From IMG/VR virus record IMGVR_UViG_2690316156_000014: a stretch of 11,285 bases of DNA; one strand, 5' to 3'. Below are positions 3,001 through 6,000 of the stretch, one piece after another; positions within the stretch are counted from its first letter, which is position 1, and every line of letters starts with the position of its first letter. The position numbers are program-made. The stretch is from a virus. Lineage: Duplodnaviria; Heunggongvirae; Uroviricota; Caudoviricetes.

Positions 3001-6000
3001 TTGATCTCCACGAACATGGCTAAAGAACTGGCGATGGTCGAACGCACTGAACAGGGCCGCGCAATTCGCCAGTACTTCATCAAATGTGAAGAAGAGCTAC
3101 ACAAGGCAGCGCCGGAACGTGCCGCAGCTTTGCGCCGTGAACTGAAAGCGCGTGTCACCGTTGCCAGTTTTTTTAAGCCTATGTGCGCTGCGCTGGAGTT
3201 GTACCGCGCAGAGCTGGGAAAAGAGACTCATCAACACCACTACACCACAGAATCAAATATGCTGGCGCGTATCGTGCTGGGCGGCATGACGGCGAAACAA
3301 TGGGCGCAGGAGAACGGCATCAAAGGAAAACCGCGTGACAGCATGAGCGTTATGCAGCTTGAACACCTTTCCTACCTTGAGCAGAGCAATATCACGCTGA
3401 TTGAGTTGGGTATGACTTACCAGCAGCGAAAAGCCGAATTAATCCGCCTTTCACAGCGCTGGCTGGCCCGTCGCATGGGAGAGCATGAACATGCCTGACA
3501 TCCTCAAACCTGCTGTCCGGTACATCGACACGGCGGATAAGTTCGCACTACTGAACATCAACCATGCTGATTACATGCGCCATATCGTGAGCCATTTCGC
3601 CGCTGAGCGCATGAAACACGTTAAGCAATACTTGGAGGAGGTTTTATCAAATTATCGCGCTGGCGGCCCTGTACGGCGCGAATATCCGCATGATGCAGGA
3701 ATGACAGGCAAAACAAAGGCGACCACGGAAGGGTCGCCAGTGGAGATAAAGGAAATCAAGCGCATCACCAACTATGCCATGAGTGTAGCTGGTGGACAAG
3801 GCTATCAGCCTGGCGGGCGATTTTTGGTTGCTTTTAGCCGCCGTGGGTATTTGTCCAGAAATGCCTCAAGCGCAAGTCGTTTTGGTCTGGTGAGAGGAGA
3901 GGGATTAAGCAAAGACTCTCGCTTCTGGCGTGCTTTTTCACGCTGGCGCTCAATTATGGATAATGCGATTGCCTGTAATTCTTCGTTGGTCATTGTCTGT
4001 ACCCGTAAAGCGGTGCGCTGTAGTACCTCATATCACAGCGCAGGTATTTTTTATGGTTGTAATTTGCGTGATGATTCAGGTCGCTTTGCGACATACTGCA
4101 TAAACATAAATAACGTGATGTTATTATGTGCTTTCAAAGAAAACGCAGGTATTTTTCGCACAAACTTCTCTCGCAACACATCCGACCACTTAAGCAAAAA
4201 AGCGGCATATACTGAGGCTATCCCTTATAAAACGGGGATCGGGCGTAGGAACCCGTTTAATCAGTACAAGGCGACACAGGCGCGCCCAGCGTCTTTTTTT
4301 GTGTCATTCCATCGCGCAACCATACCCAGCGGCAAGGCCCGTACTGTATCTATGGTGGCGCTGGTGGGGCAGCCGAAAGGCTGGCCGGTTTCCTTGTACG
4401 CCGGTATTCCTACCCCCGCCAGCGTCACCGCCCTTTATGAGCGTAGGAACTCCAGCGGTGACTCCTTAAAACAGTACAAGGAGGCCTTTCACATGGCTGT
4501 ATCCGCACGCCCTTACTTTGTCTGGCGCTTTATGCAGTGCCTGACAGACAGCATTGCAATATTCACCGTTACCGCTGCCACTGAGCACGAAGCACGCGCC
4601 CAGCTGCCGCACGCACATCTTGTTTTTGTCGCCCGTATCCGTCAGGAGGTGACTCATGCTTAAAACCTTCCGCGTCTTTTCCCGTGCTGTTAATAATCGC
4701 GGCTATACCGTTGGCATCACGCAGAACGTGAAGGCCGAAAACGTCCAGGCTGCAATCAGCACAGTAATTAACAAATCAGCTAAAGCCGGTTTATCCGGCG
4801 TAATTATCCACGCCGTTCATGAAATAAATGGGGTGCAGTAATGCAGGAAATAACACTGGCAGAAGCATCACTGAAAGCGCAGCAGGTCGAAGTAATCAGC
4901 CGCATGATTGAGCGCATGATAGAACGTAACCACGAAGAAATTGACGACCATGACCTTTCTGTTATTGCGGGACTGATTAAACAACTTTCCGCAAATGTGG
5001 CGGTATGGTTAATGACGGAGGAAGAAAAACGCGCTGAACAATAACGGAGAAAAATAAACAGGAAATAAAGATTAAGACGACGCCTTCAGGAGATTAATTA
5101 AATGAAATCAAAAAATACTGGCTTAACTGCCAGTGGCAAAACTCAACCCGAATTTATGCGCGGGGATATTTACCGCGATAAGTACGGCGGCATCGTGATG
5201 ATTATCAGCATGAGGGAACGGCGCATCACCTACCGCCGTGAAGGGTATGACTATGACTGCGTGATGCCTGTTTGTCAGTTCCGGCGTGATTTTTCCCTGG
5301 TGCAGGCCGTACCACGTCGTAGCCCAACCAGCAACAACAAAGCAAAGGCGCATGTTAAGGCCATGAAGAAGACGATCAGCAGAGGTAAGAAATGAAAAGC
5401 GCACCGAACTTAAAAAAACAGCCGCGAGGGAAAAAACACGCCGATACGGAAGTGATTATTTTCGCTGGCAGTGATGCGTGGGCGCACGCGAAACAGTGGC
5501 AGGAGCAGGAGGGACGACTTGCAGGTGATGATGTTCCGCCAGTCGTGCTTTCTGATGAACAACTTAAGGATATTGGCAATCTGAAAATTGTGCCCGACGG
5601 GCGCAAATCAGCGCGTATATACAAGGCCGGACACCTCGATCAGATGATGGTCAAAGGCATCGGTCAGAAGCTGGCAGCCGCAGGTATACAGGATGCTGAT
5701 TACTACCCTGAAGGAATGCACCACAACGAGCGGCAGAACTGGCGTAACTATCTGGATATTGAACGCAAAAACATTTCTGACGGGCTGGTTATTGAGCTGC
5801 CTGTAAAGAAAAAAGCGCGGGGACAGGGTGATGATTCGTCACTGGCACTTAACCAGATGGGGGCCAGCCAGCGTGGCAGGGTTCTTCTTGCTCATTACGG
5901 AGGGGAACTGGCAATAAACCCTGACTCTGACACAGTTCACTATTACAACGGGGTTATATGGTCCCCCGTGCAGGACAAAGAGCTACAGCGCACAATGGCG

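Follow-up and report, generated by a model that had tools for sequence, protein, structure and literature searches.

A P4-type antisense-RNA immunity switch probably underlies an anomalous long open reading frame in an Escherichia coli satellite island

Introduction

The a1b1/a'b'/a2b2 logic of antisense-RNA immunity is that of the c4 RNA of phages P1 and P7, and the seqA/seqB/seqC logic is that of the satellite P4; the immI region of P1 and P7 is reportedly ordered c4 antisense RNA, icd, ant. In P4, according to the summary of Forti et al. 1999 given by Mageeney et al. 2023 (PMC10111431), the CI RNA is transcribed from a constitutive promoter located within eta, Kil is a truncated Eta, and full-length Eta is translated only from an upstream promoter, coupled to an alpA homologue, its translation preventing immunity-specific (Rho-dependent) termination. 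The same authors described C4 and isrK Rfam matches inside genes of the "Bro" zone of phage-inducible chromosomal islands (PICIs) and compared these with P4 eta (PMC10111431). For the IsrK RNA of Salmonella Gifsy-1, short and long isoforms, translational coupling via a small open reading frame (ORF) and a processed downstream RNA, STnc1160, have been reported; Hfq binding and trans-activation of the long isoform were described experimentally, and P4 seqA was named as the structural homologue of IsrK (PMC4825925). Here we analyze a locus related to these systems at positions 3485-4663 of an 11,285-nt stretch of viral DNA (Caudoviricetes; IMG/VR record IMGVR_UViG_2690316156_000014; hereafter, the window), which is a P4-/PICI-like satellite island of Escherichia coli.

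An original prediction, made from the sequence, had singled out a stop-free frame of about 1.17 kb in this window as anomalous and had offered three explanations: a noncoding or structured-RNA locus positioned like the P4 immunity region, an overprinted gene pair, or a genuinely novel protein. We find that 3485-4663 is probably a P4-type immunity switch of the satellite island, with its frame kept open as a track for ribosomes and not as the gene of a novel protein. Its nearest relative is the PLE-seqA-CI-seqC/eta-kil region of P4, followed by the immunity RNAs of the PICI Bro zone, Gifsy-1 isrK, and P1/P7 immI.

The immunity module

A C4/CI-type antisense immunity RNA is encoded on the plus strand at 4348..4435, where the Rfam C4 model (RF01695) scores 81.3 bits against a threshold of 45 and is matched over positions 1-87 of 87. 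Its minimum free energy is -51.5 kcal/mol (z = -5.9 relative to shuffled controls), and it folds into a long closing stem with two internal hairpins; across nine alleles, drawn from relatives and P4, 16 of the 25 pairs have changed in a compensatory manner. The loop of hairpin 2 (4391-4399), which includes the sequence CCTTGTAC (4392-4399) that had been noted as a complement of one of the repeats, forms segment b' and is complementary to GTACAAGG(A) at 4264-4271 and 4474-4482. Segment a' lies in the C4 junction (4407-4413, C4 positions 60-66) and is complementary to GTAGGAA at 4245-4251 and 4443-4449. The repeats described in the original prediction are these target sites: the decamer GCGTAGGAAC at 4243-4252 and 4441-4450 corresponds to a1 and a2, its first copy having been placed one nucleotide off (4244-4253), and the decamer CAGTACAAGG at 4262-4271 and 4472-4481 corresponds to b1 and b2. 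The downstream targets a2 (4441-4450) and b2 (4472-4482), both on the plus strand, match a' and b' with exact complementarity, and b2 overlaps the Shine-Dalgarno sequence GGAGG (4480-4484) of an icd-like gene. In eight further alleles, including that of P4, the a' and b' sequences differ and the upstream and downstream sites change with them; in all nine, b2 adjoins GGAG and the icd ATG. A skew of C over G downstream of 4350 is compatible with a Rho site, although this is weak evidence.

Some relatives (loci fetched for comparison are numbered with the prefix L) contain two or three C4 RNAs in tandem, each with its own a'/b' specificity: L018 (4425-4512 and 4890-4978), L021 (4617-4704 and 5083-5170) and L022 (4203-4290, 4665-4753 and 5123-5210). 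In L021 and L022, each extra C4 is located in its own leader, C4 and Icd-like ORF of ~154 aa, which overlaps the previous stop by 8 nt. From their sequences, these tandem ORFs look like stacked immunity modules.

Upstream of C4, a leader RNA homologous to P4 seqA and Salmonella IsrK occupies 4220..4300 on the plus strand. It matches Rfam isrK (RF01394) at 4220-4299 with a marginal score (51.8 bits, threshold 50) and aligns with the P4 seqA leader, including an identical tail, GCGTCTTTTTTTGTGTC. The leader contains site a1 (4243-4252, core 4245-4251) in a hairpin loop and site b1 (4262-4271), and ends in a sequence that scores as an intrinsic terminator, with a stem at 4278-4294 and a T7 run at 4294-4300; the palindrome GGCGCGCC (4279-4286) followed by T7 had been recognized previously. 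The Rfam c4-a1b1 target element (RF03163) scores 24.6 bits at 4207-4259, below its threshold of 46.7, with the sites themselves present. A scan of genome contigs with one 18-mer from the leader returned chance matches alone, in unrelated metagenome-assembled genomes (~17 expected by chance), and loci L003-L012 were accordingly set aside.

The leader is preceded by an AT-rich, almost invariant control region (3994..4219), which separates it from an antisense gene described below. Only four variable sites are found in 231 nt among same-length copies from the fetched loci (four distinct alleles), and the region is present at ≥95% identity in 104 of 5426 complete E. coli genomes. It contains a perfect 13-nt direct repeat, CGCAGGTATTTTT, at 4039-4051 and 4144-4156, 105 bp apart, which on sequence grounds is a candidate operator pair. 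There is also a small inverted repeat, TGCGCTGT/ACAGCGCA, at 4014-4042. A scan for the sigma-70 consensus found no convincing promoter for the leader or for the antisense gene. A candidate -10 element, TATACT, is located at 4208-4213, 7 nt before the leader start, and in the P4 record the -10 of PLE is likewise 7 nt before isrK/seqA. Based on the placement of this -10-like sequence as in P4, we infer a putative internal promoter ahead of the leader.

The last 56 codons of the long frame, which the original prediction did not distinguish, are a separate nested Icd/Kil-like gene (4493..4663, plus strand, 56 aa), which is read in the same frame as the long ORF and ends at the same stop. It matches NCBIfam NF033153 with 54.5 bits (cut-off 25), a model on which P4 Kil scores 76 bits; BLASTP gave no match between the Icd-like protein of the window and P4 Kil, and their relation is visible only at the profile level. 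In relatives, this small gene is separately annotated by the Prokaryotic Genome Annotation Pipeline (PGAP). It heads the primase operon, and would be a small, toxic gene blocked by C4 at its ribosome-binding site (RBS). The suggested comparison with P4, and with it a noncoding or structured-RNA locus, is thus right for 4220-4492, which comprises the isrK/seqA-like leader, the C4/CI RNA, and target sites where repeats had been seen.

Comparison with P4 and P1/P7

The resemblance to P4 extends to the whole frame, a point missed in the original prediction. The P4 immunity region (PLE - seqA - CI RNA (seqB) - seqC, with nested eta/kil) has the same order of leader, C4-family RNA, and second target over the Icd RBS, and its leader terminator tail is identical to that of the window. 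In both, a long ORF runs in frame from the end of an upstream regulator gene to the kil/icd stop and matches Phage_ASH followed by NF033153, upstream of a P4-type primase operon. The P4 record annotates a 137-aa "ash/cI" ORF over the CI RNA, while the frame is actually open for 217 codons; the eta ORF (2246-2839, 197 codons) starts 3 nt after the vis/orf88 stop, ends at the kil stop, and matches Phage_ASH at aa 20-144 and the Icd-like family at aa 144-191. Compared with that of P4, the frame of the window is twice as long (392 versus 197 codons) and would be coupled to an AntA gene instead of vis/alpA. P4 also has no counterpart of the small antisense gene, which has a terminator of its own, or of the invariant 226-bp control region, both of which the window frame crosses. 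The two elements further differ in their a'/b' sequences, and their Icd-like proteins are too diverged for BLASTP.

The locus shares with P1/P7 immI a C4-family RNA with a'/b', duplicated a1b1/a2b2 targets with b2 over the icd RBS, and an Icd-like first gene translationally coupled to the following genes. However, in a P1-like plasmid the ORF over c4 has 39 aa and is not fused to icd, and a KilAC antirepressor follows icd, whereas in the window the antirepressor-family gene (AntA) is upstream and replication genes are controlled. The window is therefore not a c4-icd-ant operon of the P1 type, as its icd is followed by small ORFs and primase, with no antirepressor gene.

The long frame is conserved as open but does not resemble a protein

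The long eta-like frame extends from ATG to TAA at 3485-4663 on the plus strand (392 codons); an alternative ATG at 3491, with GGAG 9 nt upstream, gives the 390 codons originally reported, and the frame is stop-free from 3443 (406 codons). The other two plus-strand frames contain 17 and 23 stops over 3485-4663, and none of 20,000 shuffles of the 392 codons remained stop-free, in agreement with the claim that such openness is very unlikely by chance. The start overlaps the stop of the AntA gene (TGA, 3496-3498) by 8-14 nt, and a start/stop overlap with the upstream gene recurs in relatives, where the partners are AntA, pRha, and T5orf172. An identical 392-aa protein (P0001) is labelled "host cell division inhibitor Icd-like protein" in NCBI. 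The predicted product matches Pfam Phage_ASH (PF10554; 73.4 bits, threshold 26) at aa 242-341, corresponding to nt 4208-4507, and then NF033153 at aa 345-387.

A genuinely novel protein is not indicated: these two are its only family matches, the first coinciding with the RNAs and the second with the Icd-like C-terminus, and there is no predicted fold. AlphaFold 2 gave a mean predicted local distance difference test (pLDDT) score of 27.8, with no residue at or above 50 (from a shallow alignment of 15 sequences). The first ~110 codons had been described as protein-like, which is correct for their composition. However, variable sites in the conserved, stop-free 5' block (3485..3804, plus strand) are distributed 12/8/13 over the three codon positions (nine alleles), which is not a protein-like substitution pattern, and the pLDDT in the N-terminal part is below 35. 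The ratio of nonsynonymous to synonymous substitution rates (dN/dS) of the block is 0.27-1.16, which does not set it apart from the other frames, albeit with low power (10-23 differences per pair), and it has no family match. The rare codons pointed out in the remainder are present (AGG twice, AGA twice, ATA five times), but we reject rare-codon richness as a distinguishing feature, with a fraction of 3.3% that equals that of the island primase (3.3%) and is below that of the integrase (7.5%). Similarly, the reported richness in R, S, and C is real, but R and S (15.6% and 17.2%) are enriched only opposite the antisense gene and Cys only in the promoter region. About 75 codons of the frame are the almost invariant AT-rich control region.

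The Phage_ASH match covers exactly the leader, C4, and targets, and immunity alleles that preserve RNA pairing differ wholesale in their "Ash" amino-acid sequence. Moreover, in the P1-like plasmid a 39-aa ORF annotated as "ash family protein", just upstream of icd, matches Phage_ASH positions 49-87 and sits within the stretch that matches the leader-C4 region of the window. Based on this coincidence with the RNAs, the rewriting between alleles, and the 39-aa plasmid ORF, Phage_ASH is most likely a shadow of the RNA module rather than a protein family. A related observation concerns P4 epsilon, which is sometimes equated with Ash: PF10554 matches the P4 eta/"cI" ORF over seqA-CI-seqC (L013, 2246-2839) and not epsilon (2832-3119), which belongs to PF25738. 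A published detector of P4-like satellites uses PF10554 as an epsilon marker (PMC8628076) and therefore effectively detects the immunity RNA region.

The frame is nevertheless conserved as open, which the original prediction had missed and which argues against its suggestion that the distal part might not be translated, to be recognized by scattered stops in relatives. A protein search returned 283 relatives, all from E. coli, whose full-length forms have 380-644 aa, share identity down to ~66%, and cover at least four different immunity alleles as well as alternative cassettes. In 10 loci, the long frame has no stops, compared with 16-37 in the other frames, and it is open for 357-644 codons in intact relatives, even across inserted cassettes; in SCU-106, for example, a 369-bp insertion leaves it open for 529 codons. 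Independent cassettes (a 103-aa gene, a 78-aa gene, and a four-gene array) each have a length divisible by three and leave that frame free of stops. Because loci found through open ORFs would bias this result, others were collected via DNA similarity, the antisense protein, or the invariant control region. In this set, sampled regardless of the plus-strand ORF, the frame of every intact island extends without a stop from the upstream gene to the leader T-run or beyond (309-623 codons), and interruptions occur only in decayed remnants beside fbpC.

By chance, the 5' block would lack stops with a probability of 0.004-0.013, the AT-rich control region with 0.009-0.018, the segment opposite the antisense gene with 0.05-0.11, and the RNA segments with 0.3-0.6, giving a product over all segments of ~1e-8 to 3e-7. 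A library of 1.84 billion representatives contains 175 clusters that match the Ash+Icd stretch, and by our own count ~45 of the 150 listed 50%-identity cluster representatives carry leader, C4, and icd within a single frame whose N-terminal extensions vary. The frame appears to be selected for being translatable, not for its product.

Fusion of the long frame to icd varies with the length of the terminator T-run. The allele of the window has T7 (4294-4300), and an in-frame fusion is found in L001, L024, L028, L041, and L042. Another allele has T8, T9, or T10 (L002, ~4392-4400; L019; L040), of which only T10 leaves the long frame fused to icd, so T-run length shifts the frame in the allele of Shiga toxin-producing E. 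coli (STEC). This length variation could reflect slippage-based variation or homopolymer assembly error.

A probable antisense gene beneath the long frame

The 62-aa antisense ORF reported by the original prediction at 3805-3993 (minus strand) is present, and is followed by an intrinsic-terminator-like hairpin, GGCGACC...GGTCGCC with a T-rich tail, at 3708..3738 on the same strand, which folds with -14.4 kcal/mol (z = -4.0) and is conserved in relatives. The third codon positions of this ORF coincide with those of the long frame. Its dN/dS is 0.14-0.31 in its own frame compared with 0.42-0.65 in the plus frame, and its variable sites are distributed 14/14/31 over the codon positions. Thus the idea of an overprinted gene pair holds for one partner: the antisense ORF evolves as a protein, whereas the plus frame is merely stop-free. 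PGAP annotates the ORF in other strains as a hypothetical protein of the WP_071827874.1 type, and homologues are found only in E. coli. AlphaFold 2 predicts two helices only (residues 3-29 and 41-48; pLDDT 77). Searches of Pfam, NCBIfam, and PHROGs with this protein and its paralogues gave no match apart from a weak one of a single paralogue to a PHROG family of unknown function. Judging from its substitution pattern, the 62-aa ORF is probably a real gene under purifying selection.

In relatives, the minus strand carries arrays of one to four tandem small genes (59-103 aa), all in the same phase, beneath the stop-free long frame, which remains open through these cassettes for up to 644 codons; the differences in long-frame length are due to these arrays. 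They occupy 3318-4307 in L021, 2258-3247 in L028 (reverse strand), and 3906-4460 in L001, the window having the single gene at 3805-3993. Because the four-gene arrays of L021 and L028 differ so little, they add nothing to the dN/dS analysis. The encoded proteins vary at their N-termini, but most have a C-terminal motif, FAL[E/D]xF, after which the commonest type continues with KYPRRLKATKNRPPG. An antisense array under a stop-free frame is a feature that we had not seen described. When sequences were resampled synonymously with the antisense proteins fixed, the plus frame was open in only 11-55% of trials per gene.

A decayed remnant adjacent to fbpC (L025, L026, L033-L036) occurs in many E. 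coli genomes; it retains an intact antisense gene of 62-65 aa, has lost the immunity module, and its opposite long frame is interrupted.

Proposed mechanism and alternative explanations

By analogy with P4 and P1, in the resting island a constitutive promoter near 4185-4213 would make the leader, with transcription starting near 4220; most transcripts would end at 4300, and occasional read-through followed by processing would give C4. Pairing of C4 with a2/b2 would block icd translation and cause premature (polar) termination before the primase operon, leaving the replication genes off. When the upstream promoter of the alpA-antA operon fires, ribosomes coupled from antA would translate the long frame, unfold both the leader terminator and C4, and cover the targets, allowing read-through to primase regardless of immunity. 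The frame would then matter as a ribosome track and not for its product, and a role in making upstream transcripts insensitive to immunity is the one that we consider most likely.

A stronger version may also be formulated. In this version, ~400-640 codons would be stop-free solely for ribosomes crossing the control region, terminator, antisense-RNA gene, and targets; the product-less track would overprint an expandable antisense array of one to four genes (shared third codon positions, FALExF), and T7/T8/T9/T10 slippage would toggle its fusion to the toxic icd. We put this forward tentatively, at rather less than an even chance.

Several observations weigh against the proposed switch and its ribosome track. 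The isrK score barely exceeds its threshold, and the leader fold is unexceptional (z = -0.6). In an allele widespread among STEC (O157/O103/O111), the T-run is T9, or T8 in one strain, which takes the long frame out of phase with icd and brings it to a stop within icd (357 codons) or within C4 (309 codons), so not every locus has the icd fusion. Some of the loci that indicate openness were chosen by protein matches, which favors open frames, and when the codons of each antisense gene were permuted synonymously among themselves, significance was only moderate (~6e-3, six independent genes). Finally, the antisense gene is transcribed against the proposed read-through and is absent from the P4 model.

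Among alternatives, one agrees with a P4-type switch on the anatomy and differs solely in the decisive interaction. The locus might act in the manner of Gifsy-1 IsrK, with the short leader working in trans on a long read-through transcript, or as a sponge for C4, so as to permit icd and coupled downstream translation. The Rfam isrK match with its own terminator would fit, as would sites a1/b1 of the leader, which are perfect decoys for C4 a'/b', and the isoforms, small-ORF coupling, STnc1160, and P4 seqA homologue of the IsrK study (PMC4825925). Like isrK - orf45 - anrP of Salmonella Gifsy-1, the locus has a leader small RNA with a Rho-independent terminator, which is partly read through in Gifsy-1, a putatively processed downstream RNA, and a small first ORF that would couple translation to downstream genes. 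However, the leader sequence resembles that of P4 seqA much more than the IsrK consensus, its isrK score being just above threshold; the downstream genes are replication genes as in P4, with no AnrP/AntQ antirepressor/antiterminator cascade; and no long frame through the locus was described in Gifsy-1 (PMC4825925). We regard this explanation as unlikely, though worth serious consideration.

The long frame could also be a functionless by-product, open via chance, GC-rich RNA sequence, and recent common ancestry, with only the antisense gene, the RNAs, and icd being real. The RNA segments are indeed likely to be stop-free by chance, near-identical blocks common to many loci (such as the promoter region with its four variable sites) mean that the observations are not independent, T-run variants break the icd fusion without obvious loss of the island, and the permutation test is of moderate significance. 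Against this, each of the three non-RNA segments has a low probability (0.004-0.11) of lacking stops, the independent cassettes all preserve the frame, and module-less remnants have lost the open frame while keeping the antisense ORF. Moreover, many diverged representatives have leader, C4, and icd in one frame, and P4 has the same arrangement with a published functional role. These points make a by-product quite unlikely.

That the 392-aa frame is a genuine multi-domain "Bro-network"/Ash protein, for example an anti-repressor or regulator, in which the RNAs are embedded by happenstance, would agree with the 73-bit Phage_ASH match, the annotation as a protein by PGAP and other pipelines, the conserved openness over 380-644 codons, and the treatment of eta-like genes as Bro-network genes (PMC10111431), but is very improbable given a Phage_ASH match limited to the leader-C4-target region, amino acids that change wholesale between alleles while pairing is kept by compensatory and three-site co-variation, uniformly low pLDDT (27.8), a 5' block without third-position excess, selection on the other strand over the antisense gene, ~75 codons of almost invariant AT-rich control region, and frame-shifted versions fixed in large STEC lineages. 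The Gram-negative PICI Bro zone belongs to the same type of island (int, alpA, a Bro-family gene, primase/SSB), but its long ORFs were interpreted as Bro-network proteins (PMC10111431), whereas our analysis of the window indicates that the ORF is a shadow, devoid of stops, that overlies RNAs, a control region, and antisense genes.

Genomic context

The genes of the island occur in the order integrase (1-1323), AlpA-type helix-turn-helix gene (2307-2582), AntA/AntB-family gene (2650-3498), long-frame locus, small ORFs, primase, SSB, a ProQ/FinO-family gene, two PerC-family genes, and a Q antiterminator gene. Downstream of the icd-like gene, the plus strand encodes two small ORFs (4656-4841 and 4841-5044), a DUF4222 gene (5102-5395), and a D5/P4-type primase (5392-7212). 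This operon (4656..7212) has overlapping start and stop codons at three of four junctions, and its gene order is kept in relatives. It would be under the control of the immunity switch at 3485-4663.

A ProQ/FinO-family RNA-binding protein is encoded at 8170-8616 (Pfam ProQ, 86.6 bits), and it is conceivable that it is tied to the antisense-RNA switch of the island. Past the replication module, two genes for PerC-family activators lie side by side, and a phage Q antiterminator is also encoded (8600-9172 and 10472-10864). In the relative L021, the Rfam int-alpA RNA (RF02996) is matched between int and alpA at 920-987 (36.9 bits, threshold 35.8); Rfam reported no match to it in the window. Matches of the window to sR17, mir-3012, and SNORD31 were below threshold and were dismissed as chance.

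Implications

An anomalous ORF of 1.2 kb is hereby resolved into known parts, and points to an E. coli satellite island whose replication operon would be controlled by a P4-type antisense-RNA immunity switch. For annotation, the 392-aa "Icd-like protein" and Phage_ASH most likely derive from translating RNA genes, a control region, and the strand opposite a real small gene. If the ribosome-track hypothesis is correct, Phage_ASH and the "Icd-like" proteins of 380-644 aa in databases would be shadows of RNAs and antisense genes; as a marker of P4 epsilon (PMC8628076), PF10554 does not match epsilon. The nine co-varying a/b specificities provide a ready-made set of hetero-immune alleles. The locus may also serve as a test bed for whether selection can maintain an ORF because it is translated, irrespective of what it encodes, and for the way in which a frame of this kind shares its DNA with opposite-strand genes.

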